Positions 1 through 9,261 of a stretch of DNA of 64,000 nt are shown in pieces. The stretch's first letter is position 1. Each line of letters begins with the position of its first letter. This DNA is from a virus. Lineage: Duplodnaviria > Caudoviricetes. A program made the position numbers and the translations under genes. The DNA lies in the IMG/VR virus record IMGVR_UViG_2061766007_000586, positions 224,001 through 288,000 of that record. The stretch is one strand, 5' to 3'. A model generated the notes under the pieces. That model was not told the origin of the DNA. It was given only the letters and a program-made list of their open reading frames with translations, and searched no databases.

Positions 1-374
1 ACTGAAATATCGATTAAATCTATTTTGAATTTCCTTGGTACAACATTACATCCTTTGTTATATATTAATCCGTGAAAGATGAAATTACTTTTATTAGTAA
101 TAAGATTTTTCGGAATGAAGAAATCAAAGTTTCCTATTTGTATTTCTTCTGAACGGCGTGGATCGATACAGAATTGAGGTGGATTAAGGAGATAAATGTC
201 ATATCTCTGTTTATCTATTGTGACTTGTACTCCAGCTACAAATGGAATATCAATTATCATGCCTAAAAACCCATCTTCATTGATATACTTTTGACACCAT
301 TTACTGATAGCATGAGCAGAAACATCAATGCATTTGATACGCGGATCATACATAATGATTTCAGGTTCAGTCAT
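1..374 (-). CDS. hypothetical protein, partial (runs off window start)
   Basis: ATG at 374 with AAGGAG SD and TATATTAC promoter at 416-423; frame open to position 1 (MTEPEIIMYDPRIKC...). Confidence 0.7.
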   Translation of the reverse strand, partial: MTEPEIIMYDPRIKCIDVSAHAISKWCQKYINEDGFLGMIIDIPFVAGVQVTIDKQRYDIYLLNPPQFCIDPRRSEEIQIGNFDFFIPKNLITNKSNFIFHGLIYNKGCNVVPRKFKIDLIDIS

Positions 375-415
375 AATTATTCTCCTTTAATTAATTATAG
401 GTTAGATCTGTTTGA

Positions 416-423
416 GTAATATA
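416..423 (-). promoter_or_regulatory. phiKZ-type early promoter core TATATTAC
   Basis: exact TATATTAC on - strand upstream of SD/ATG; motif recurs before many minus-strand genes. Confidence 0.7.
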
Positions 424-458
424 TACTTAACGATTGTATGAATTAATAAAATAAAATA

Positions 459-486
459 CAGGATCACCCGATAAAGGGTGATCCTG
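459..486 (-). terminator. intrinsic terminator
   Basis: 11-bp stem CAGGATCACCC/GGGTGATCCTG followed by T-rich run on - strand. Confidence 0.75.
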
Positions 487-499
487 CAATGATAACAAA

Positions 500-589
500 T
501 GGCGAAGAGAGTGGGATTCGAACCCACGGAGGATTTTACTCCTCGGCTGTTTAGTAGACAGCTCCCTTAAACCGCTCGGGCATCTCTTC
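500..589 (-). tRNA. tRNA-Ser(ACT)
   Basis: acceptor GAAGAGA/TCTCTTC, anticodon arm GCTGT-CTACTAA-ACAGC, long variable arm, TTCGAAT T-loop, G73, encoded CCA. Confidence 0.92.
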
Positions 590-597
590 GTTTTATA

Positions 598-1047
598 TTA
601 TTCAAACTCTTCTTTTAATTTAAGAAACAGTTGATATCTTTCATTTCTTTTTGCTTCACGTTCTCTTTCATCCTGAGCATCTGATATTTTCTTCCACATA
701 TCATCCCAATCACTTTTAGCTTCTGCTAATGATAGAAATAGATAGGAAGCAGGACATATAAGATATCTTGATACACCATTTTCTGAATCATAACCAGCTG
801 TGTATTCGATGTGAAGAATATTGTTATCATTTATATTAACTTTAACAAGTTCATCTACATAAGTACCTTCTAATTCGTGAATAAGATTTCTGAGTAATTG
901 ATCTGTCTCTTTCCAGGTATCAATTCTATCTTTACAGATAGCAATTTTATCTTCATAATGATCATACTTGGCCTGTGACATTCTCTCAACAATGATCCTA
1001 TTATATTCTGTAGGATCCATAAATCTATTTTTTTGTATGGTTCGCAT
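598..1047 (-). CDS. hypothetical protein
   Basis: 149-aa ORF between RNA elements. Confidence 0.7.
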   Translation of the reverse strand: MRTIQKNRFMDPTEYNRIIVERMSQAKYDHYEDKIAICKDRIDTWKETDQLLRNLIHELEGTYVDELVKVNINDNNILHIEYTAGYDSENGVSRYLICPASYLFLSLAEAKSDWDDMWKKISDAQDEREREAKRNERYQLFLKLKEEFE

Positions 1048-1090
1048 GACGTTTCTCTCTGCTATTATAGAAATTTAAGAAAAATAAAAA

Positions 1091-1157
1091 TCACAATAGA
1101 ATATGTATAGGGTGAGAAACCGAGTCGGTGGGGAAATCCATACATACTCTATTATGA
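1091..1157 (-). ncRNA. stem-closed small RNA candidate
   Basis: 18-bp closing stem TCATAATAGAGTATGTAT/ATACATATTCTATTGTGA with G-U pairs on - strand. Confidence 0.4.
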
Positions 1158-1280
1158 AAAATCTTCACAAAGTTGCGCTTAATCTTCTCAATATATTTCC
1201 CTCATATTAGAGAAGTAGAGGCGTAGTGAAGTACCCATTAGGTATAGTATTATACTACATGCACAAAAATAAAATAAGTA

Positions 1281-1311
1281 CTTACTCCGACCCACTAGGA
1301 GTCGGAGTAAG
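1281..1311 (-). terminator. intrinsic terminator after tRNA-Ala
   Basis: 11-bp stem CTTACTCCGAC/GTCGGAGTAAG followed by T-rich run on - strand. Confidence 0.65.
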
Positions 1312-1326
1312 CTGAGGGAGGGGGAA

Positions 1327-1403
1327 TGGTGGACCGTACCAGACTCGAACTGGTGACATCCTGCTTGCAAAGCAGGTGCTCTAGCCAACTGAGCTAACGG
1401 CCC
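1327..1403 (-). tRNA. tRNA-Ala(TGC)
   Basis: cloverleaf, loop TTTGCAA, G3:U70, CCA. Confidence 0.97.
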
Positions 1404-1410
1404 ATAAGGG

Positions 1411-1658
1411 TTTCAGGTCTTAAAGACCAACATCTAAGTCTATAACCCTGACTTAGCATGCGCATGTTTGGCGCAGCGTTGCGACCAATGTCCGGCACGA
1501 CAGTTGGGGTCTGACGCACCTGTAAGATCCGTATTACTTGATAGGAAATCCCCATACGGCACTGAGACACGTAGTAGCTGTGCACTAATCAGCTAACAGA
1601 ACCTATCATGTGCTGACCAACTTTACGTTCGTTTCTACATGATCGTTAAGGCCTGAAA
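1411..1658. ncRNA. ~250-nt multibranch structured RNA candidate
   Basis: 13-bp terminal stem TTTCAGGTCTTAA/TTAAGGCCTGAAA enclosing at least 5 hairpins; GC-rich; fills the gap between two tRNAs. Confidence 0.55.
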
Positions 1659-1659
1659 A

Positions 1660-1734
1660 TGGAGCGCGTAAAGGGAATCGAACCCTTATCATCTGAGTGG
1701 AAGTCAGAAACTCTAGCCGTTGAGCTACACGCGC
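1660..1734 (-). tRNA. tRNA-Gly(TCC)
   Basis: cloverleaf, loop CTTCCAC, U73, CCA. Confidence 0.96.
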
Positions 1735-1748
1735 TTAACAAAATAAAA

Positions 1749-2000
1749 TGGATACAAATAGTCACCAAGATTGCGACCCCTGAACATGAGAGGGACGAGT
1801 CTTAGGAGCTCTCGAGCCTCGCATACTTGTGACGTTTAGTACCTTACCTTGACACTTTCTTCTTCAGCAGGTACTTGGTGATAATGGCGGCTGTTCTGGT
1901 ACGAACCCTAACCTTCTTGTGTAGCGTATTCAGTAATAGCAAGAACACATTACCCTGTCTCAATGAGACACTACATCCGTCTTTTTACTACTTGTATCCA
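1749..2000 (-). ncRNA. ~250-nt structured RNA candidate (paralog of 2190-2437)
   Basis: 14-bp terminal stem TGGATACAAGTAGT/ACTATTTGTATCCA with G-U on - strand; sequence blocks shared with 2190-2437. Confidence 0.6.
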
Positions 2001-2007
2001 AAAATGA

Positions 2008-2079
2008 TAGCGGGGAGGAGAATTGAACTCCTACATTTGGGTTATGAACCCAACCAGCCTTCCGTGGCTGTACCCCGCG
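2008..2079 (-). tRNA. initiator tRNA-fMet(CAT)
   Basis: C1:U72 mismatch, A11:U24, GGG/CCC anticodon stem, loop TTCATAA; followed by TCA rather than CCA. Confidence 0.9.
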
Positions 2080-2092
2080 ATAATATCAAAAA

Positions 2093-2181
2093 TCTCATTA
2101 GGCAAATGATGCCTGCATCAAAACTAACAAACCAATTAATAATTAATAAGTTTAAGTGAATTTTGAAATTGCCTAATGAGA
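2093..2181. ncRNA. stem-closed small RNA candidate
   Basis: perfect 13-bp terminal stem TCTCATTAGGCAA/TTGCCTAATGAGA. Confidence 0.45.
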
Positions 2182-2189
2182 AAGTAAAA

Positions 2190-2437
2190 TGGAAATTAAT
2201 TAGCTAGCATGATTTCGACTGTACGGGAAGGACTGAAGCCTTAGGAGGGTGGTAATACGTCAGTCCAATTCAAAAGTGAACATTTATCACGCATACCTTG
2301 ATCACTTTCTAACCTTTCCGAGCTCTATACGTCTCGCAGTACATACTAGTAAGAGTTTCGCCAGTACGTGAACTCTTGAAACCCCGTCTACAAGTTACCA
2401 CCTTGTAGTTACCTTTCTTTTTACTAACTAACTTCCA
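2190..2437 (-). ncRNA. ~250-nt structured RNA candidate (paralog of 1749-2000)
   Basis: 14-bp terminal stem TGGAAGTTAGTTAG/CTAATTAATTTCCA with G-U pairs on - strand; internal hairpins. Confidence 0.6.
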
Positions 2438-2447
2438 AAATAGGAAA

Positions 2448-2551
2448 TACCTGATGAGTAAAACATGATTAGGTGTGTGGACCTTTTATTCAACCCCATC
2501 TTTGTTAAAAATGGTTAATGTTTTTTCTAATCACACTCTACTCATCAAGTA
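2448..2551 (-). ncRNA. stem-closed small RNA candidate
   Basis: 25-bp terminal stem with several G-U pairs on - strand. Confidence 0.5.
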
Positions 2552-2560
2552 CAAAATGAA

Positions 2561-2624
2561 ATCTAGTTCATAACTTCGACTTCTTTGTACCATCTATATG
2601 GCGGTCTAATAATATAAACTAGAT
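2561..2624. ncRNA. stem-closed small RNA candidate
   Basis: terminal stem ATCTAGTT/AACTAGAT flanked by A-rich linkers. Confidence 0.35.
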
Positions 2625-2633
2625 AAAATAAAA

Positions 2634-2710
2634 TCAACCAGATAGCCATACAACTTAACCCTTTAACACATAAACAATTGTTTTTGTGAAATTTTTTACT
2701 ATCTGGTTGA
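2634..2710. ncRNA. stem-closed small RNA candidate
   Basis: perfect 12-bp terminal stem TCAACCAGATAG/CTATCTGGTTGA. Confidence 0.45.
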
Positions 2711-2713
2711 AAA

Positions 2714-2783
2714 TGGAGCAGGACCTACCAGGCAGCGTATGCATCGCTAAAGAGTCTCCTCTATAACGCCCAATGTGTCCTGC
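2714..2783 (-). ncRNA. 70-nt RNA with tRNA-type acceptor stem and CCA but no cloverleaf
   Basis: GCAGGAC/GTCCTGC + T + CCA; two internal hairpins. Confidence 0.5.
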
Positions 2784-2791
2784 ATGACAAT

Positions 2792-2869
2792 TGGTCGGGG
2801 CAACAGGATTCGAACCTGCGACATCTTGCTCCCAAAGCAAGCACTCTAGCCAGACTGAGTTATACCCCG
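2792..2869 (-). tRNA. tRNA-Pro(TGG)
   Basis: cloverleaf, loop TTTGGGA, CCA. Confidence 0.97.
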
Positions 2870-2885
2870 ATAAAATTCTTAAAAA

Positions 2886-3102
2886 GCACAGAAGAGGATA
2901 GTAAGCTAGCTACCATTCTGTGCCAAGGAGGACTCACCTTCCTCCAGGATTACGACTACGCGGGATTATTCGTAGAAACGTCTACCTTCTAATCTTGATA
3001 ATTTTAGCATCAAGCAACTTCAGTAGCAAGTTAACCTCATACTAGTGTTGTCCTTCTTAGGGCAAGTCGCATCAACACATGAGCTTTTAACTCGATGAGG
3101 TT
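2886..3102. ncRNA. hairpin-dense non-coding element
   Basis: successive stems GCACAGAA/TTCTGTGC, GGAGGA/TCCTCC, CAGGATTA/TAATCTTG, AACCTCAT/ATGAGGTT. Confidence 0.45.
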
Positions 3103-3107
3103 TAAAT

Positions 3108-3183
3108 TGGGTTGGATGATGGGGCTCGAACCCACAACATGCTGAGCCACAGTCAGCCGCTCTACCATTGAGCTACATCCAAC
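3108..3183 (-). tRNA. tRNA-His(GTG)
   Basis: G-1:C73, loop CTGTGGC, CCA. Confidence 0.97.
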
Positions 3184-3188
3184 ATAAA

Positions 3189-3590
3189 TTAATCATCTAG
3201 AAAATCAGGATTATTTTTAATGAATTCTTCATAACCCTGTTCTATAGATTCTTTTTTCTTTTGATCATGTTCACATATTTCAGCTTTTTCTGAACATATG
3301 AAAAAACCACAATTACGTGAACGTATTGTGTCCCAAGCGATTCTTTCTCTTAGCAAATTTGGATTCTTTGCCATTTGTGTTTGGATAGCGAGATTCACTG
3401 CACTACAATCGCCTTTTGGTAAAATTACCAAATTGCTTGCGTCACGATTCCAATCGTTACCATCCACGCGAAATGTATTGTCTCGCCCTTTTACATAAGC
3501 ACCTGTGGCAAGTGCTTCTTTCGGAACATGCTTATTGGCACGTTTCCCATTAAAAGCATTCGCTGGTTTCTTATTCGGTTTGGTAGACAT
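3189..3590 (-). CDS. hypothetical protein
   Basis: 133-aa ORF with AAGGA SD. Confidence 0.7.
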   Translation of the reverse strand: MSTKPNKKPANAFNGKRANKHVPKEALATGAYVKGRDNTFRVDGNDWNRDASNLVILPKGDCSAVNLAIQTQMAKNPNLLRERIAWDTIRSRNCGFFICSEKAEICEHDQKKKESIEQGYEEFIKNNPDFLDD

Positions 3591-3627
3591 AAAGTGATTT
3601 CCTTATTTCAAAAACGGTTATAGAATT

Positions 3628-4206
3628 TTATTTTTTAATTTGAACCCAACTAAAATCTAGATATGTTTTAATTGGTGGTTTTTTGAAATATTCGTCAACA
3701 GCTTTTTTAACACCAAAGACACGTTCAAAACATTTGGCGTTTATGTGTGGATCATTTGGATCAACGTAATCATGTCCTGAGATAATTCCACCAGGTTTTA
3801 CTTTAGGAACATAATTGTTAAGATCACGCTTTGCTGCTTCGTATCTATGATCTCCATCGATATAAATAAAATCAATAGAGTTATCTTCAAATCTGTCTAC
3901 AACTTCTTCAGAGTGTGCTTTTACTTTTTTAATAATGGGGTTCATAAAGTGCTTATAATCAAAAAAGATTTCAGCATATACGATACTGCTATAAGCACAG
4001 CAATCTTTTGGATCATAACCCATTTGCCAAGGATCAATGCAATAAAGTGTTTTAAAAGCGCCACTCTTAACAAACATGCTTGTACTCTCACCAGCATAAG
4101 AACCTATTTCTATACCAATGAGATCTTTCTTTCCTTTTAGATATTCATCTACAAAATCTTGTAGATGACTCATACCTGCTTCACGTTGTGGATATATTAA
4201 ATCCAT
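3628..4206 (-). CDS. class I SAM-dependent methyltransferase (Methyltransf_24-like)
   Basis: EIGSYAGES, IDPW, IYIDGDH, KPGGIISGHDY motifs. Confidence 0.88.
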   Translation of the reverse strand: MDLIYPQREAGMSHLQDFVDEYLKGKKDLIGIEIGSYAGESTSMFVKSGAFKTLYCIDPWQMGYDPKDCCAYSSIVYAEIFFDYKHFMNPIIKKVKAHSEEVVDRFEDNSIDFIYIDGDHRYEAAKRDLNNYVPKVKPGGIISGHDYVDPNDPHINAKCFERVFGVKKAVDEYFKKPPIKTYLDFSWVQIKK

Positions 4207-4226
4207 ATTACTTCTCCTTATTAAAA

Positions 4227-4359
4227 GACCAAAGGTGTGTTTCTACACCAAAAGTTTTCAGGCATGGACTACCATGCTTACTCGATTCGCACAAATCTAC
4301 TCGAGTCATCCAACTACTCCTTAGCTGATGGCTACTTCTAAGCCAACAGTCCTTCAGTC
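4227..4359 (-). ncRNA. mimic of 23S rRNA H43-H44 (L11-binding GTPase-associated centre)
   Basis: TGTTGGCTTAGAAGTAGCCATCA...GTGTAGAAACACAC matches 23S UGUUGGCUUAGAAGCAGCCAUCA...GCGUAAUAGCUCAC; closing stem GACTGAAGG/CCTTTGGTC. Confidence 0.8.
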
Positions 4360-4364
4360 AACAA

Positions 4365-4456
4365 TGGCGGTGAAGGTGGGATTCGAACCCACGGACAGTC
4401 TCTCAACCGTCGCTGCTTTTCAAGAACAGAGCCATAGACCTCTCGACCACTTCACC
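4365..4456 (-). tRNA. tRNA-Ser(TGA)
   Basis: long variable arm, loop CTTGAAA, G73, CCA. Confidence 0.96.
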
Positions 4457-4460
4457 AAAA

Positions 4461-4934
4461 TTATTTATATTTTACATGATGACCATGTATAGATTTTCGT
4501 TCACCACGTGCTACTCGTTCAACACATACAGGAATTAATCCGTAATAACTTGCAAAGTCAGTAGCACTTTCAAATTCTTTTCCTGTATCAAGATCAATAA
4601 CAGGTTTAGAAAAATGATTTTCCTTTCCGTGTTTTCCGTAAAAAGGATTTTTCTCACCTTTTCGAGTTTCTTTTAATTCTTTATTTGATTTTTTAGTATG
4701 ACAACTATGGCAGAGTAATTGACATTTTTGCAATTCTGTTTCAGTTTCTTGTTTTGATCTATTTAGCAGATCACTAATATTAAATCTTTTTTCTACAGAA
4801 TTGATGTGATCAAATTCTAAATGTTCTGTTGATCCGCATTTGACACATTTTCCACCAAGTTTTGAAAGTAATTCATTTCTTCGTTTGTGATAATATTTTC
4901 TACTATAGTTTCGATGATAATCACGATTCATCAT
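4461..4934 (-). CDS. HNH homing endonuclease with NUMOD-like C-terminal DNA-binding motifs
   Basis: CxxC...LEFDH...CQLLCHSCH; GEKNPFYGKH; DTGKEFESA; own TATATTAC promoter at 4972-4979. Confidence 0.88.
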   Translation of the reverse strand: MMNRDYHRNYSRKYYHKRRNELLSKLGGKCVKCGSTEHLEFDHINSVEKRFNISDLLNRSKQETETELQKCQLLCHSCHTKKSNKELKETRKGEKNPFYGKHGKENHFSKPVIDLDTGKEFESATDFASYYGLIPVCVERVARGERKSIHGHHVKYK

Positions 4935-5026
4935 AATACTACTCCTTTGTTTGAGTGTATAAACTATAATAGTAATATATGTTCAAAAAGAAAATGGTAA
5001 TACTTTACCATTCTCTTATCAAAAAA

Positions 5027-5101
5027 TGGCATTCCGACAGGGAATCGAACCCTGATTAATAGACTGAAAATCTACTGTCCTAACCGTTAGACGACCGGAA
5101 C
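5027..5101 (-). tRNA. tRNA-Glu(TTC)
   Basis: cloverleaf, loop TTTTCAG, CCA. Confidence 0.95.
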
Positions 5102-5105
5102 ATCA

Positions 5106-5615
5106 TCATGATTTATTTAACTTAATGATTTTTTCTATGATGCTGGTGGTACTATAACCTTCTTTAAAATCAAGAATTTTAATTTCACACTTAACGGTGT
5201 CCAGTGCGTTCTTTTCTTCTTGATTTAATCCAGCTATATAATCTCCACCTTTTACATAAAAATCTGGATGAAGTTGAAGAATTTCATTTTCACATGTAGG
5301 GGAATCAAAAATAACAACGTGATACACACATGTGAGACTTGCAAGAGCATAAGCTCTATCTTGCTCATTATTGATAGGTCGGTGATCACCTTTTAAAGCT
5401 TTAACCGATTTATCACTATTGAGTAAGACAAATAATTTTCCGAACTTAGCAGCATTGTTGAGAAATTCTAGATGTCCACGATGGAGAATGTCAAAACATC
5501 CATTTGTTAGAACAACTGGAATATTGTCAAAATGAAGACATTCTCGTTCAATGATTGCTCCATCAAGATCAGTAATTGCACCTTTAATGTAATGATCTAG
5601 AATATTATCTGACAT
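5106..5615 (-). CDS. RfaE/HldE domain II-like heptose-1-phosphate adenylyltransferase (cytidylyltransferase family)
   Basis: TNGCFDILHRGH, LNSDKSVKALKG..RPI, KGGDY, GYSTTSII; likely start 5615 because 5642 lies inside the upstream terminator. Confidence 0.88.
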   Translation of the reverse strand: MSDNILDHYIKGAITDLDGAIIERECLHFDNIPVVLTNGCFDILHRGHLEFLNNAAKFGKLFVLLNSDKSVKALKGDHRPINNEQDRAYALASLTCVYHVVIFDSPTCENEILQLHPDFYVKGGDYIAGLNQEEKNALDTVKCEIKILDFKEGYSTTSIIEKIIKLNKS

Positions 5616-5636
5616 AATAGACCTTGAAATAAAAGA

Positions 5637-5668
5637 ATACACTGCATGGGTTTTACCATGCAGTGTAT
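5637..5668 (-). terminator. intrinsic terminator after DUF2828 gene
   Basis: 13-bp stem ATACACTGCATGG/CCATGCAGTGTAT followed by T-rich tail. Confidence 0.75.
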
Positions 5669-5678
5669 AGAATAACGG

Positions 5679-7160
5679 TTAACCAACCGTGATCTTTGCA
5701 TAACGTTCTGCGTTCAGAACGTTAAGCATCATCTCGATTGGCGTATCGGTGATGGCTCTCATCACATTCTTGAAGGATGAAACGGCTTGGCCCGAGCAGC
5801 AGATAGCACCCTTCCTGTCTTTATCGACGTGGAAGGTATCGTGCCTTGACTCTACGTTCCAGAATACGATACCAGGAATCTGGTATCCTTCTTCTTCGAA
5901 ACGTTTCTTGAGAGAATCATAGAACACCCAGTCAGTGTAGCGAGTACCTTCATCGATTTCCATATCGGAAATGATGATGATAGCCTTCGGCATATCTTCT
6001 GGAGCAACATGATGCTCTGTTGCGATCTTGAGAATCTTCTCAAACGCAGCTTCCAGATTTGTCGAACCACCCCAATCATTAGTATTGATACTTTGGAGTT
6101 TCTGAGCGAGCGTCTGACCCTTCAGGTGATGAAGAGTACAGTTCGAAGAGAACGACATCCACAGGTCCTTATAAGGACCTACGTTACGTTCGGCAAAGTA
6201 AATTGCCAAACCAACTGCAGATGCCATAGGACGACCAGCCATACTTCCCGAAGTATCGGCGATTACGATTGCAGACGAATTGCCTACAACGTAGTTCGGA
6301 AGGGACTTCCACTGACCTTCGACGATAGGATCTTCTTCGAAAGTGACCCCATTCCAATCCCATCTTCTTCCTATGTACTTTTCCACAAGATTGTACGGAT
6401 ACAGAGTACCAGCATTGATCTTGGCAGTACCGGCTGTGAGATTCTTGAGATAATCGAAGAAACGATCTCCATCGTGTTTCGGAAATGCCATCTTGTAGCG
6501 AAGCATGGCATGACTCGGAACAGCTTCGTAGTTGATTTCGTTCCAAGTACCATTCGACATGTGTGTTTCCACAATGTTGATGTACTTCCTCAAGCCACGA
6601 AGAAGACGCTTGAACATGCGTACTTCCATTCCGAACTTCAGGGCAGTCATGATGCCAAGTTTACGGGTCTCTTTGGAAGATCCGTCTGGAGTTTTAATCC
6701 ACTTGGCAAGAAGACTTACCGGCTTGTTCTGTCCCATGGCTTCAAGATCAGCCACGAACTGCTTCTTCATCGAAACCCACATATCGTCCTCTAAAGGAGT
6801 TCCGATCAGTGTGTATAAGTCGTCATAACGACCATACTCACCAATCAGATCGATATTGGGTCTGATACATTCCGGGTAGTGCTGGGCAGCATACTTCAGA
6901 ATCTGACGGAATGATTTCCTCTCACCGAGGCCTTCTCTTACATCACGACTGTAAAAGAGGCATCTCGTGGCGAGAAGTTTGTCCTCTGCATAGGCGTCAG
7001 AGAACAGACGTTCGATGCGGGTCTGCTCCGTGTTACGAAGAGCACCGCAGACACTGAAAAAGTCCAGAACTTTACTACCTGTCGTGTTAAGACAGGTAGC
7101 TCCATTTTCGGTGCGAGAGTGGGTTGCTTCCTTTGCGAAAGCGTTTGCAAATGTTGTCAT
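5679..7160 (-). CDS. DUF2828-family Ro60/TROVE-like protein with vWA (MIDAS) domain
   Basis: TENGA, RDVREGLGER, LLAKW; MIDAS DTSGSM...GGSTN...ISDME; FWNV; start 7160 with GAAAGGAG SD. Confidence 0.85.
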   Translation of the reverse strand: MTTFANAFAKEATHSRTENGATCLNTTGSKVLDFFSVCGALRNTEQTRIERLFSDAYAEDKLLATRCLFYSRDVREGLGERKSFRQILKYAAQHYPECIRPNIDLIGEYGRYDDLYTLIGTPLEDDMWVSMKKQFVADLEAMGQNKPVSLLAKWIKTPDGSSKETRKLGIMTALKFGMEVRMFKRLLRGLRKYINIVETHMSNGTWNEINYEAVPSHAMLRYKMAFPKHDGDRFFDYLKNLTAGTAKINAGTLYPYNLVEKYIGRRWDWNGVTFEEDPIVEGQWKSLPNYVVGNSSAIVIADTSGSMAGRPMASAVGLAIYFAERNVGPYKDLWMSFSSNCTLHHLKGQTLAQKLQSINTNDWGGSTNLEAAFEKILKIATEHHVAPEDMPKAIIIISDMEIDEGTRYTDWVFYDSLKKRFEEEGYQIPGIVFWNVESRHDTFHVDKDRKGAICCSGQAVSSFKNVMRAITDTPIEMMLNVLNAERYAKITVG

Positions 7161-7174
7161 AATAAAGCTCCTTT

Positions 7175-7235
7175 CATGACACGTTAAATGCATAAATTTG
7201 CAGTTTATGAAATTGGGTTTGCTGTTAGCGTCACA
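7175..7235 (-). ncRNA. CAGCAA-motif hairpin A, abutting the SD of the DUF2828 gene
   Basis: TGTGACGC-TAACAGCAA...GTGTCATG; inner CATAAA-CTGCAAA-TTTATG. Confidence 0.6.
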
Positions 7236-7244
7236 TTCACTAAA

Positions 7245-7301
7245 CAGGACACGGAATAATAACTAAAAAGTAATTATTTGATTGATTTGCTGGATGTGCC
7301 C
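7245..7301 (-). ncRNA. CAGCAA-motif hairpin B
   Basis: GGGCAC-ATCCAGCAA...GTGTCCTG. Confidence 0.6.
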
Positions 7302-7327
7302 CAATGGTGATAAAGGATCTAAAGAAA

Positions 7328-7579
7328 TAGAAAGAGTAGGATTGGATACCTACATTTCAGCTTGAGGATTGCTTTTTGTTCGAAGTTGCAATCTTACTTC
7401 ACCTAGTTAATCTTCTTGGCGATGGCGCAATACTTACTTTCGCGTAAGCATGCAGTTACACTAGAATTTAATAATAGATAAAGTTTTGTTTGCTGTAAAT
7501 GCCACATACATGACATTCTTCCAAACTTTGTTCTAGTTGATTTACATCTCTATAAATCAACTTATTGAACTATCTTTCT
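7328..7579 (-). ncRNA. expanded tRNA-like RNA 3 (~250 nt)
   Basis: AGAAAGA/TCTTTCT acceptor; TA-GTTC...GAAC D-stem with extra hairpin; GTAGG/CCTAC T-stem; permuted CAGCAA hairpin. Confidence 0.7.
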
Positions 7580-7593
7580 AAAATACGAAAAGA

Positions 7594-7707
7594 TGAGCAG
7601 AGTAGGACTCGAACCTACATTCCGAGATTACTAATCTAAGTATCTTGCAGTTAATGACCTGAGAAGGACATATTTTTACGTGTTCTCTCCTGTTGAACTA
7701 TCTGCTC
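7594..7707 (-). ncRNA. expanded tRNA-like RNA 2 (~114 nt)
   Basis: GAGCAGA/TCTGCTC acceptor; GTTC/GAAC D-stem; GTAGG-TTCGAGT-CCTAC T-arm; anticodon region replaced. Confidence 0.78.
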
Positions 7708-7718
7708 GTAAAGTGAAA

Positions 7719-7765
7719 CAGGACGCATTGATCATTTATTGATGATAAATTGCTGTGAGCGTCCC
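7719..7765 (-). ncRNA. CAGCAA-motif hairpin C
   Basis: GGGACGC-TCACAGCAA...GCGTCCTG. Confidence 0.6.
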
Positions 7766-7771
7766 AGAAAA

Positions 7772-7906
7772 TGGTGGAGAGGGTAGGATTTTCACCTACA
7801 CATAGAAGTCCATTGATCTATTTAATTAAAAATAAATTTGCGGCGAGTGTCACACTGCAACATGACACCACATAAATACTTCTTGCTCTAATTGAGCTAC
7901 CTCTCC
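7772..7906 (-). ncRNA. expanded tRNA-like RNA 1 (135 nt, CCA encoded)
   Basis: GGAGAGG/CCTCTCC-A-CCA; GCTC/GAGC D-arm; AGAAGT/ACTTCT stem enclosing ~70 nt; GTAGG-TGAAAAT-CCTAC. Confidence 0.8.
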
Positions 7907-7954
7907 AAAAGGTACAGTAGAGATATATATAATCGTAATTTATTTGAGTTAAAA

Positions 7955-8031
7955 TGGTACACCAGACGGGGTTCGAACCCATGACCCTCTGCTTAGAAGG
8001 CAGATGCTCTATCCTACTGAGCTACTGGTGC
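7955..8031 (-). tRNA. tRNA-Arg(TCT)
   Basis: cloverleaf, loop CTTCTAA, CCA. Confidence 0.97.
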
Positions 8032-8513
8032 ACATTATCTGATTCTAATGGAGACCTTACGGTTTGTTCAAGTTTAGTGAAAAACAATACTTCAAAACCT
8101 ATTATACCATTTGCGTTTAACCAATCTGCTACTAAATGTCTATGACAAAATTCCATAGGTTTTTCATAGCAAATTAAACATGGTTGTTTTCCGTCAGTTT
8201 TTTCAAGCAATTCTGACATAACTTGTTTTGGATCTAGTTTACCTAAAATTTCTTCATTGAAGCGTTTTGTGTAAATTTCATTATCGTGGTGGTTGAATTT
8301 CCAATCACTGTAAATACTCCAGGAAGGTGCTAGTTTTTTATACTGAATCCCAGAATACCAATCAGGTGCTTTACCACAGATAGAGACAGGAACTATAGAA
8401 CCAGGCATGTTTAGAATATCATTAAGTTTAGCAAAATATGAAGTTCTAAACTCTTGCCATTGAATTTCTTTCCCATTTATAGTAAGTGGCCATATAGGTT
8501 GTAAGTTTGACAT
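8022..8513 (-). CDS. DUF488-family protein
   Basis: LAPS...Y..RF...CLICYEKP.EFCHRHLVADWL; start 8513 with AAGGA SD (the longer ORF begins inside tRNA-Gln). Confidence 0.8.
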   Translation of the reverse strand: MSNLQPIWPLTINGKEIQWQEFRTSYFAKLNDILNMPGSIVPVSICGKAPDWYSGIQYKKLAPSWSIYSDWKFNHHDNEIYTKRFNEEILGKLDPKQVMSELLEKTDGKQPCLICYEKPMEFCHRHLVADWLNANGIIGFEVLFFTKLEQTVRSPLESDNVHQ

Positions 8514-8530
8514 TTTGATTTTCCTTAAAA

Positions 8531-8604
8531 TGGTAGTCCCGTCGGGATTTGAACCCAAACTAACTGGACCAAAACCAGTTGTGCTGCCATTACACCACAG
8601 GACT
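8531..8604 (-). tRNA. tRNA-Gln(TTG)
   Basis: cloverleaf, loop TTTTGGT, CCA. Confidence 0.95.
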
Positions 8605-8680
8605 ATTTATACTTTCGTATACAATATCAAATATACACAAAAATATATTGTGGATGCAGGATAAAACCTGCATCCGTTTG

Positions 8681-9091
8681 TTACTTATTTTTAAAGTAGT
8701 TGATACAGTTTTGCATAAACCAAATAAATGGATTAAGCAAAAATCTGTATGCACGAAGTTCTTCTGTATCTTGTACGGTTGGATTTACTAATGCATTATC
8801 AATTGCATTTTGTATAGCTTTTTTGGGAGTAAGCCCAGTAGCTATAATCCAATCTTTAGAAGAATTAAACTCAATAGTCCTGGCAAAGATAATTTCACCA
8901 TGCCCAGCGGACTTATTGATGTAGCAGACATATTGATCGTTGAAATGAAGTCTATTGTCAGTAGGGTCTAATTTCCTGACATAAATGCACTTTTTACCAT
9001 ACATGTTTCCGTAAAAATTATGATTATTAATACATGCAGGTCTAAAGTCGTGTTCAAGTAACCAATATATCTCGTTAAAGTCTGCAGTCAT
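8681..9091 (-). CDS. hypothetical protein
   Basis: 136-aa ORF followed by a hairpin terminator at ~8652-8675. Confidence 0.7.
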   Translation of the reverse strand: MTADFNEIYWLLEHDFRPACINNHNFYGNMYGKKCIYVRKLDPTDNRLHFNDQYVCYINKSAGHGEIIFARTIEFNSSKDWIIATGLTPKKAIQNAIDNALVNPTVQDTEELRAYRFLLNPFIWFMQNCINYFKNK

Positions 9092-9261
9092 AAATTTTCC
9101 CTATGGTTAGTTAATCTTCAACTGCGAATATATAAACTACACGAGGTAGAGAGATGTTACATGACCCATAACATAATAGTAATATATGTATTAAATAAAA
9201 ATGAAAGAAAAAAGAACCCAGGATTGCTCCTGGGTTTTTCGCCGTTAGGCAGTCGTTTCAG

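Follow-up and report, generated by a model that had tools for sequence, protein, structure and literature searches.

Structured RNA units between the tRNA genes of a rumen jumbo phage, probably released from a tRNA-punctuated precursor

Layout of the tRNA cluster and its units

The stretch of DNA analysed here (the window, 64,000 nucleotides (nt)) comprises bases 224001-288000 of IMGVR_UViG_2061766007_000586, a 318,604-bp virus record that is rated complete and belongs to a rumen jumbo phage with an overall G+C content of 36%. The first 8.6 kb of the window carry 10-11 tRNA genes, every one of them on the minus strand according to ARAGORN and Rfam. The densest part of this tRNA cluster, window positions 3182 to 1280 read on the minus strand, is a gap-free array of five tRNA genes and nine non-tRNA units (Table 1), and these units are the subject of this report. 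Four of them are large and are called A to D; the others are named by their positions. In minus-strand order the array runs tRNA-His, D, tRNA-Pro, 2783-2714, 2710-2634, 2624-2561, 2551-2448, C, 2181-2093, tRNA-Met, B, tRNA-Gly, A, tRNA-Ala. We think it probable that the units are stable, compactly folded phage RNAs that are released from a precursor punctuated by the tRNAs.

A first-pass annotation, made from the letters alone, had described nearly all non-tRNA sequence between 1091 and 3102 as eight units bounded by terminal inverted repeats and separated by short linkers that are A-rich on the plus strand. Folding with ViennaRNA places an outermost helix of 12-25 bp exactly at the ends of all eight, and the linkers between array elements measure 1-14 nt, with a U content of 63% on the RNA strand. 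The tRNAs and units take up 1748 of the 2014 bases of 1091-3104, so the picture of near-complete tiling holds, with the correction that the annotation omitted two structured units, 2876-3104 (D) and 2714-2783. It also took the large units for simple stem-closed RNAs; they are complex multi-helix folds, and a core module common to three of them had gone unnoticed. Its statement that there are no credible open reading frames (ORFs) is borne out: every ORF of at least 60 amino acids in the region overlaps a tRNA gene, and indels of 1, 2 and 4 nt occur inside units in related phages.

The inverted repeats have a polarity. G-U pairs on the minus (tRNA) strand are found in seven of the eight terminal stems, more than the four for which they had been claimed, and in every unit it is the minus strand that gives the more stable fold (for 2448-2551, -34.0 vs -23.7 kcal/mol). 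Folding against dinucleotide shuffles, an Rfam scan and a covariation analysis across related phages had been proposed as checks, and all were run. Against 200 shuffles each, the small hairpins fold with z-scores of -4.1 to -6.4, and none of the 200 shuffles was as stable. Long terminal helices close eight of the nine units in the array, the exception being D.

Table 1. Features of the array and its borders, listed in minus-strand order (positions are those of the window)
Feature	Position	Strand	Description	Support
tRNA-His(GUG)	3108-3182	-	first gene of the array	ARAGORN; Rfam, 65.8 bits
Unit D	2876-3104	-	structured RNA of ~229 nt with GUCGUAAUC and a GGAGGA/UCCUCC hairpin; closing helix of only 5 bp; 3' end a 14-bp hairpin, then U5	RNAalifold, 4 orthologs, 98.9% of cells paired; 6 compensatory pairs vs 3.8 shuffled; RNA contigs X1, X2, X3
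tRNA-Pro(UGG)	2792-2869	-		ARAGORN, Rfam
Unit 2714-2783	2714-2783	-	70-nt GC-rich unit (54% G+C); 7-bp stem GCAGGAC/GUCCUGC, then UCCA	fold z -2.6
Unit 2634-2710	2634-2710	-	77-nt hairpin RNA; 13-bp terminal stem, conserved interior	fold z -4.9; 3 compensatory stem pairs across 5 orthologs
Unit 2561-2624	2561-2624	-	64-nt hairpin RNA; 12-bp terminal stem	fold z -4.05
Unit 2448-2551	2448-2551	-	104-nt hairpin RNA; 25-bp terminal stem with 5 G-U	fold z -5.7; 6 compensatory stem pairs
Unit C	2190-2437	-	248-nt complex-fold RNA; 15-bp terminal stem with 3 G-U; bulge CGAAAU, P8 loop CUCCUAAG	6 sequences, 98.5% of cells paired; 12 compensatory pairs vs 4.0 +/- 1.4 shuffled, 0/500; slid-register controls 1-4; RNA contigs X2-X4
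Unit 2093-2181	2093-2181	-	89-nt AT-rich hairpin RNA; 13-bp terminal stem	fold z -5.1; 1 compensatory pair plus G-U intermediates
tRNA-Met(CAU)	2006-2080	-		ARAGORN, Rfam
Unit B	1749-2000	-	252-nt paralog of C; 14-bp terminal stem; P1/P4/P5/P7/P8 core, bulge CGCAAU, loop CUCCUAAG	6 sequences, 98.9% of cells paired; 7 compensatory pairs vs 1.8 +/- 1.0 shuffled, 0/500; RNA contigs
tRNA-Gly(UCC)	1660-1734	-	CCA encoded	ARAGORN, Rfam, sequence
Unit A	1411-1658	-	248-nt complex-fold RNA; 16-bp terminal stem with 2 interruptions	7 sequences, 96.9% of cells paired; 15 compensatory pairs vs 6.9 +/- 1.4 shuffled, 0/500; RNA contigs
tRNA-Ala(UGC)	1327-1403	-	last gene of the array	ARAGORN, Rfam
Intrinsic terminator	1280-1312	-	14-bp stem (7 G-C pairs), then U-rich tail	fold z -6.2
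Hairpin 1091-1157	1091-1157	-	67-nt hairpin; 20-bp stem with 3 G-U, then UUUUUAUUUUU	fold z -6.4

Covariation, conservation and RNA contigs

Orthologous arrays were found on six syntenic contigs, all assembled from the rumen of cattle or sheep (L024/L035, L028, L026, L033, L038 and L040/L044), which were reached through the proteins of two neighbouring genes, DUF2828 and ORF149, and through one pattern scan; L024/L035 is a 318,677-bp near-twin of the phage. Across the six contigs the units are 73-100% identical, and the order tRNA-His, D, tRNA-Pro, ..., C, hairpin, tRNA-Met, B, tRNA-Gly, A, tRNA-Ala is kept. Within this order whole elements come and go. In L024 (14520-15150), a gene for an HNH_3 endonuclease stands exactly in place of tRNA-Met, B and tRNA-Gly; in L028 (4618-5153), the hairpin and tRNA-Met are missing and C is joined directly to B, which is 85% identical there between neighbours that are 98-99% identical; and an additional tRNA, either tRNA-Gln(CUG) or another tRNA-Gly, is seen in some relatives. 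In both L026 and L040, identity of the DUF2828 gene is 65-66% and blastn finds no match for ORF133 or the cytidylyltransferase gene, yet A to D are 79-95% identical there at full length, the same range as the tRNAs. Unit by unit, D is 88-94% identical in five relatives and 2093-2181 is 78-99% identical in four; 2714-2783 has a homolog in L028 only.

Covariation was assessed on RNAalifold alignments of the orthologs of each unit, and pair counts were then compared with shuffles (500 for A, B and C) and, for C, with slid-register controls. Compensatory pairs exceed the shuffled counts in all four large units, and in A, B and C no shuffle reached the observed number (Table 1); in D, cells with double changes number 10 vs 4.5. 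Compensatory changes also occur in the terminal stems of three small units (2448-2551, 2634-2710 and 2093-2181), so that seven of the nine units are supported by covariation. The sole orthologs of 2561-2624 are near-identical, so no covariation signal can be obtained from them. The three covarying small units have conserved interiors, which in 2448-2551 and 2634-2710 are conserved as well as or better than the stems that enclose them.

The metatranscriptomic evidence consists of assembled contigs, from which the ends, strand and abundance of the RNAs cannot be read. Some part of the stretch is present in 23 RNA libraries made from bovine or ovine gut (a total of 18 studies is listed), and four runs (X1 to X4) were examined over window positions 400-4500. 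In X3 and X4, which come from separate studies, mismatch-free contigs cover A (1448-1645 and 1453-1638, respectively), B (1777-1975 and 1779-1967), C (2207-2428 and 2110-2423) and D (2865-3117), with zero depth on the flanking coding sequences 598-1047 and 3189-4206. This is the pattern expected of stable RNAs, not of DNA contamination or ordinary mRNA. The X2 contigs derive from a variant strain; they bridge tRNA-Ala, A and tRNA-Gly (1360-1748) and run from C through 2634-2710 (2275-2715), and such bridging is in line with a precursor. In X1, cover extends over D, tRNA-His and the ORF upstream. Among the small units, 2093-2181 is represented in X4 and three more hairpins in X2. Missing cover of A to C in X1, and of 1085-1221 in all four runs, was given no evidential weight.

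The asymmetry of the G-U pairs, the compensatory changes in six relatives and conservation like that of the tRNAs make it very likely that the units are genuine structured elements at the RNA level, encoded on the tRNA strand.

Folds and kinship of the large units

In the RNAalifold structure of C, a 14-bp P1 is stacked on a long-range P4, and P2, P3, P6, P7 and P8 are hairpins. Judged from sequence and modelled structure, B and C are paralogs: their global alignment scores 5.75 standard deviations above shuffles, and a covariance model (R1) built from the core of the C orthologs alone recovers all six B cores at full length, at expectation values (E) of 5e-5 to 3e-3. A model-guided joint alignment of the two puts the helices of B inconsistently. 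Both have a 13-14-bp P1 followed by UAGUAAAAAGA, a variable 5' domain, an 8-bp long-range P4 whose 3' strand runs straight into P1, then P5, a P7 hairpin with UCAAGGUA...UAAA, and a strongly covarying P8 whose loop contains CUCCUAAG. A 6-nt bulge of GNRA type separates the 3' strands of P5 and P4, and this bulge and the single-stranded motifs UAGUAAAAAGA, UCAAGGUA and CUCCUAAG are the invariant motifs of B and C. In C, the P2 loop GGUGGUAA (2395-2401) and UUACCACC in the P8 loop (2249-2256) share 8 nt of perfect complementarity; 5 bp of this complementarity (GGUAA/UUACC) are retained in six of six orthologs and the full 8 nt only partly, which makes the two loops a candidate pseudoknot or kissing contact. 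In B, GGUAA and UUA(U/C)C are placed at the foot of P4 instead.

The bulge belongs to a module that recurs in A. Separate RNAalifold runs for A (5 sequences), B and C agree on a helix, 1 nt and a second helix on the 5' side, and on a helix, a hexamer and a helix on the 3' side; in A, the first helix on the 5' side has 7-8 bp and the hexamer is CGCAAC. The motif AUCAAG is likewise common to A, B and C, and A has in addition a hairpin with a covarying stem that bears a conserved ACCCCAA loop. Across orthologs, the bulge hexamers read CGCAAC in A, CGCAAU or CGAAAU in B, CGAAAU, CGAGAU or CGGAAU in C and CGUAAU in D; all of these fit C-GNRA-Y, with variation confined to N, R and the final pyrimidine. 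Each large unit has one copy of the pattern GTCG[ACT]AA[TC], and these four are the only ones in 9.3 kb of the minus strand; the looser GTCGNRAY occurs 72 times in 637 kb (both strands of the genome).

The shared module suggests that A, B and C form one family, and several results weigh against including A. Neither R1 nor nhmmer finds A, and a relaxed ordered motif (TCAAG ... CYCCWAA ... GTCGNRAY) picks out B and C in the whole genome and not A. When RNAalifold was rerun on seven A sequences, the stretch folded as a local hairpin instead of the P4-like helix, a preference that does not match the compensatory changes in A, which fall in the P4-like helix. The module and motifs that connect A with B and C were, moreover, recognised post hoc. 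Given that the C model and nhmmer miss A, its kinship is suggested and goes no further than that.

The invariant single-stranded motifs and the GNRA bulge of B and C would most likely form a compact tertiary core. Both units keep an invariant CCUAAG and an invariant CAAGG (B also has UAAGG), and CCUAAG with CAAGG resembles the 11-nt GNRA receptor, CCUAAG_UAUGG, in which the middle U is flipped out (bioRxiv 10.1101/2024.03.11.584472). This combination, with a GNRA-type element that varies only at N and R, recalls the GNRA and 11-nt receptor contacts of group I and group II introns and RNase P and may hint at a core of the GNRA-receptor type. It differs from them in several respects: the GNRA element sits in a 6-nt bulge and not in a hairpin loop, the first U of the receptor is a C, the two receptor halves would pair in trans, hairpin loop with internal loop, and no intron or RNase P model matches.

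D stands apart. Neither R1 nor nhmmer finds it, and it shares only GUCGUAAUC and AUCAAG with the other large units, in a different order. Its hairpin at 2925-2947 (minus strand) pairs a Shine-Dalgarno-like GGAGGA with an anti-Shine-Dalgarno-like UCCUCC. A 13-mer in D, CUGGAGGAAGGUG, is identical to positions 1172-1184 of E. coli 16S rRNA (0/200 shuffles), and AGUCGUAA, just upstream of it, equals 16S positions 1493-1500. Mimicry of 16S or 23S rRNA was considered for the units and rejected: no small-subunit rRNA (SSU) model matches anywhere in the genome at E up to 10, and alignment and 8-mer statistics equal those of shuffles, the 13-mer in D excepted. Unit 2714-2783 ends like a tRNA acceptor with discriminator and CCA; inside, it does not form a cloverleaf, and it is not called as a tRNA by ARAGORN or Rfam.

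The units have no further copies elsewhere in the 318-kb genome, and searches of IMG/VR with ORF133, ORF149, DUF2828 and the tail sheath protein returned no close relatives. Two sequence patterns taken to IMG/VR gave 18 matches (GAAAGTG(N)TCAAGGTAWG, all in coding-like DNA) and 4 matches (a three-block pattern), all judged to be chance; in JGI metagenomes, the three-block pattern hit eight stretches, of which three (L038, L040, L044) are real rumen-phage arrays and five are chance. A distant 278-kb phage (G001), whose tail sheath protein is 44% identical, is without the units. A 250-nt intergenic gap of G001 gives a weak full-length match to R1 (188173-188294, minus strand; L051 2173-2294; 15.4 bits, genome-wide E 0.3) that includes a hairpin loop, UACCUACCUCCUA, resembling the C loop UUACCACCCUCCUAAG; it may be a remote relative or chance. 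The same phage has a full tmRNA directly upstream of tRNAs (L022 4368-4866; 71 bits) and, ~400 nt upstream of a tRNA pair, a group I intron-like element (L023 2934-3209; 49.7 bits, gathering score 50).

Neighbouring genes, and proposed processing and roles

On the strand of the array, the neighbouring genes comprise two small ORFs of no known family (598-1047 and 3189-3590) and genes for a Methyltransf_24 protein, an HNH endonuclease, a cytidylyltransferase-like protein and a DUF488 protein. A Ro60-like gene with DUF2828, DUF7788 and vWA domains lies at 5679-7193, also on the same strand and 2.5 kb upstream of the units. The motif ACAGCAA occurs three times upstream of it (minus strand; 7219-7225, 7490-7496 and 7750-7756), and two of the three sites coincide with weak Rfam matches to Dictyostelium Class I RNA (RF01414, ~19.7 bits). 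At 7775-7906 (minus strand), an Rfam tRNA match of 42.3 bits over 132 nt implies a tRNA-like gene with an insertion of ~60 nt, for which ARAGORN makes no call. Despite the inverted repeats, the locus does not look like a retron with its msr-msd, as a reverse-transcriptase domain is absent from all nine flanking ORFs within 1-9100.

In a scan of the window with Rfam 15 (4227 models), only tRNAs reach the gathering threshold. At E up to 10 (over 400-9000 and 1404-3107), the units drew only chance-level matches, for example to plant miRNA and snoRNA models at 19-22 bits. When 50,697 GenBank phage records, T4 included, were searched by blastn, the tRNAs alone matched, and none of the 975 matching records covers more than 7% of the query. 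Our literature searches found no relevant description of such arrays. YrlA (RF02553) has no match at E up to 10. ROOL (RF03087) has no match in the 318-kb genome at E up to 1, in a search in which control genomes gave no match either, and neither ROOL nor GOLLD matches in the all-family scan of the window, the scan that covered GOLLD. A group I intron, including a reading based on UCAAGG...ACUAAA, was rejected: RF00028 has no match at E up to 10 in a search that does find the intron of the relative L023 (49.7 bits), the units sit between complete tRNAs, and B and C begin with UGGA and end with ...UCCA.

How the RNAs might be made can be outlined from this layout. With a single strong terminator after the last tRNA and no room for promoters between units, the array fits one precursor. 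As merely 6 nt separate the stop of ORF 3189-3590 from the start of tRNA-His, it would be read along with the upstream genes as a single transcript that stops at the terminator at 1312-1280. At 1157-1091, and again at the 3' terminus of D, a hairpin likewise leads into a U run; the other units have no terminator-type tail. RNase P and the tRNA 3'-end enzymes would cut at the tRNAs and single-strand endonucleases in the U-rich linkers, after which the 12-25-bp terminal helices would shield the freed RNAs from exonucleases. Alternatively, the terminal helices may be RNase III-type processing stems, as in rRNA precursors. In mitochondrial transcripts, tRNA punctuation releases the RNAs that the tRNAs flank, and in bacterial rRNA precursors RNase III stems bracket the mature RNAs; the analogy is one of mechanism only, as the helices here belong to conserved units, and several units abut without a tRNA between them. 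On balance we favour tRNA-punctuated processing of the array.

A number of observations weigh against this account or parts of it. The folding gain of the four ~250-nt units is modest (z -1.6 to -2.3) and borderline on energy alone; their structures are supported by covariation instead. The shuffle controls for covariation overstate significance and are not probabilities, since orthologs are few (4-7 per unit) and related, although the abundance of G-U intermediates and the slid-register controls lead to the same conclusion. Conservation alone is not decisive either: ORF149, which adjoins the array, is 95% identical in L026, so that a block exchanged recently may account for part of the identity of the units. 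RNA ends cannot be read from contigs, which leaves processing at the stems as something we infer, and one adapter-flanked contig stops at 1645, 13 nt inside A. In L028, units abut without an intervening tRNA, and tRNA-processing enzymes alone cannot explain their release. The hairpin at 1091-1157 comes after the strong terminator, so it probably does not belong to the tRNA transcript. It precedes ORF 1047-598 by 43 nt and would probably be a second terminator or a leader (5'-untranslated region) hairpin of ORF149. The first-pass proposal of a polycistronic precursor processed into many small RNAs finds partial support, in the RNA-level units, the RNA contigs and the single terminator, and it probably does not extend to 1091-1157.

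What the released RNAs do is the weakest step. The phage's tRNA- and RNA-handling island also encodes the Ro60-like DUF2828 protein, an HNH nuclease and DUF488, and we tentatively suggest that the units are stable protein-binding RNAs, scaffolds or decoys, acting in this island during infection. This is a guess from context. We do not regard the units as antisense regulators. The loop motif CUCCUAAG was considered as an anti-Shine-Dalgarno or mRNA-targeting sequence and rejected, its complement CTTAGGAG not being enriched in the genome (6 vs ~7 expected); the ribosome-binding sites of the phage read (A/T)TAAGGAG, and TTAGGAG is upstream of no ORF.

For the small AT-rich hairpins (2093-2181, 2448-2551, 2561-2624, 2634-2710 and 1091-1157), a role as mere punctuation, that is, as RNase III-type stems, insulators or terminators with no function of their own, is conceivable, though we doubt it. 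Their uninterrupted 12-25-bp stems do resemble substrates of double-strand-specific nucleases, and U runs follow 1091-1157 and the 3' hairpin of D. However, the conserved interiors of 2448-2551 and 2634-2710 argue for a sequence-specific role of the loops, and the hairpins are retained as discrete cassettes in relatives.

The presence of the DUF2828 gene raises the idea that the units, or at least A to D, are additional Y-RNA-like partners of its Ro60-like product, with the bulged end helix (C-GNRA-Y) serving as a protein handle in the way Ro60 grips Y RNAs. As in Y RNAs, the 5' and 3' ends would pair into a long stem with a conserved bulge, here one common to A, B and C, and a GCAA element occurs in both ACAGCAA and CGCAA. 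We consider this unlikely, because the ACAGCAA sites (7756, 7496 and 7225) are all beside the DUF2828 gene and never in A-D or the small hairpins, neither YrlA nor Y_RNA of Rfam matches at E up to 10, and the units are two to three times longer than known Y RNAs and have multi-junction interiors.

A, B and C might instead constitute a new catalytic or self-assembling class of RNA, as smaller functional cousins of ROOL and GOLLD or as a ribozyme acting on the precursor or on tRNAs. By analogy this would suit their complex multi-junction fold, invariant single-stranded motifs, GNRA element and receptor-like CCUAAG, their three copies per genome, a location in a phage tRNA island as for ROOL and GOLLD, and the complementary loops of C (GGUGGUAA/UUACCACC), which could make an intra- or intermolecular kissing contact. 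It strikes us as rather improbable, given that there is no similarity to ROOL, GOLLD, group I introns, RNase P or any Rfam 15 ribozyme, that 250 nt is far below the size of ROOL or GOLLD, and that the loop complementarity is kept at all 8 nt only in part, with 5 bp common to the six orthologs.

A reading of the inverted repeats as elements of DNA, for example mobile palindromes, recombination sites or targets of homing endonucleases, is largely refuted and very improbable. It would be in keeping with the long perfect repeats in AT-rich sequence, with the way in which cassettes are gained and lost among relatives and with the HNH genes that lie in the cluster, but the G-U pairs would be A-C mismatches on the other strand, where every unit folds less stably, the changes are compensatory and pass through G-U intermediates, the units do not recur elsewhere in the genome, and RNA contigs cover the units and not the neighbouring genes; covariation and strand asymmetry rule out a DNA-level palindrome. 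Finally, decayed or rearranged versions of known RNAs (group I introns, rRNA fragments or mimics, tRNA pseudogenes) are scarcely credible for the large units, despite the near-threshold group I intron and the tmRNA beside tRNAs in G001 and short 16S identities (13 nt in D, 10 nt in A, a gapped 22-nt match in C), since no Intron_gpI, SSU, large-subunit rRNA (LSU) or tRNA model matches the units at E up to 10, neither local alignments with E. coli 16S and 23S rRNA nor 8-mer counts exceed shuffles except for the purine run GGAGGAAGGUG of D, strong purifying selection with covariation is unexpected of pseudogenes, and there are no split exons, terminal G or U-G splice-site pair.

Non-tRNA structured RNAs in phage tRNA islands are already known in kind. 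The tRNA cluster of T4 yields two stable RNAs of ~120-140 nt, 'species 1' and 'species 2', from the same precursor as the tRNAs, matured by the tRNA-processing enzymes of the host. These are likewise non-tRNA stable RNAs inside a phage tRNA operon; T4 has two of them, whereas the present array has nine units, 64-252 nt long, some of which form a paralogous family. GOLLD and ROOL are orphan phage and prophage noncoding RNAs with complex folds, often found near tRNA islands and possibly co-transcribed with the tRNAs, and ROOL was discovered first in cow rumen data (PMC5737381; bioRxiv 10.1101/2024.12.08.627333). Like them, the units described here are encoded by a phage next to tRNA genes, and like ROOL they come from the rumen; the large units are much shorter (229-252 nt vs ~580 and >800 nt), three or four copies, different or paralogous, stand in one array, and the units have long terminal helices. 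What is new is that the sequences belong to no Rfam 15 family, that nine units are interleaved with five tRNAs, that long helices close eight of the nine, and that there is a two- to three-member family of ~250-nt RNAs with a shared GNRA-bulge module.

As a bolder and doubtful extension, A, B and C may represent a new class of ribozyme-sized, tertiary-folded phage RNA, built on a P1-P4-P5 coaxial stack with the C-GNRA-Y bulge, a receptor-like pair of CCUAAG and CAAGG and an A-rich junction, present in up to three diverged copies per genome, and acting as a catalyst, as a self-assembling RNA or as a second partner of the Ro60-like protein; the locus would then be a tRNA-punctuated 'RNA operon' that delivers a kit of RNAs.

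With nine distinct structured RNAs in 1.9 kb, of which the four large ones and several hairpins are seen in natural metatranscriptomes, the locus is unusually dense and clean. It offers compact targets of ~250 nt for structure determination and for finding partners, in an island that holds a Ro60-like gene, and it is probably a natural viral example of the production of non-tRNA RNAs through tRNA punctuation. If the units are merely stable by-products, they are still a useful annotation of the 'empty' space in phage tRNA clusters; if they prove catalytic, self-assembling or related to defence, they would add a new class of RNA.

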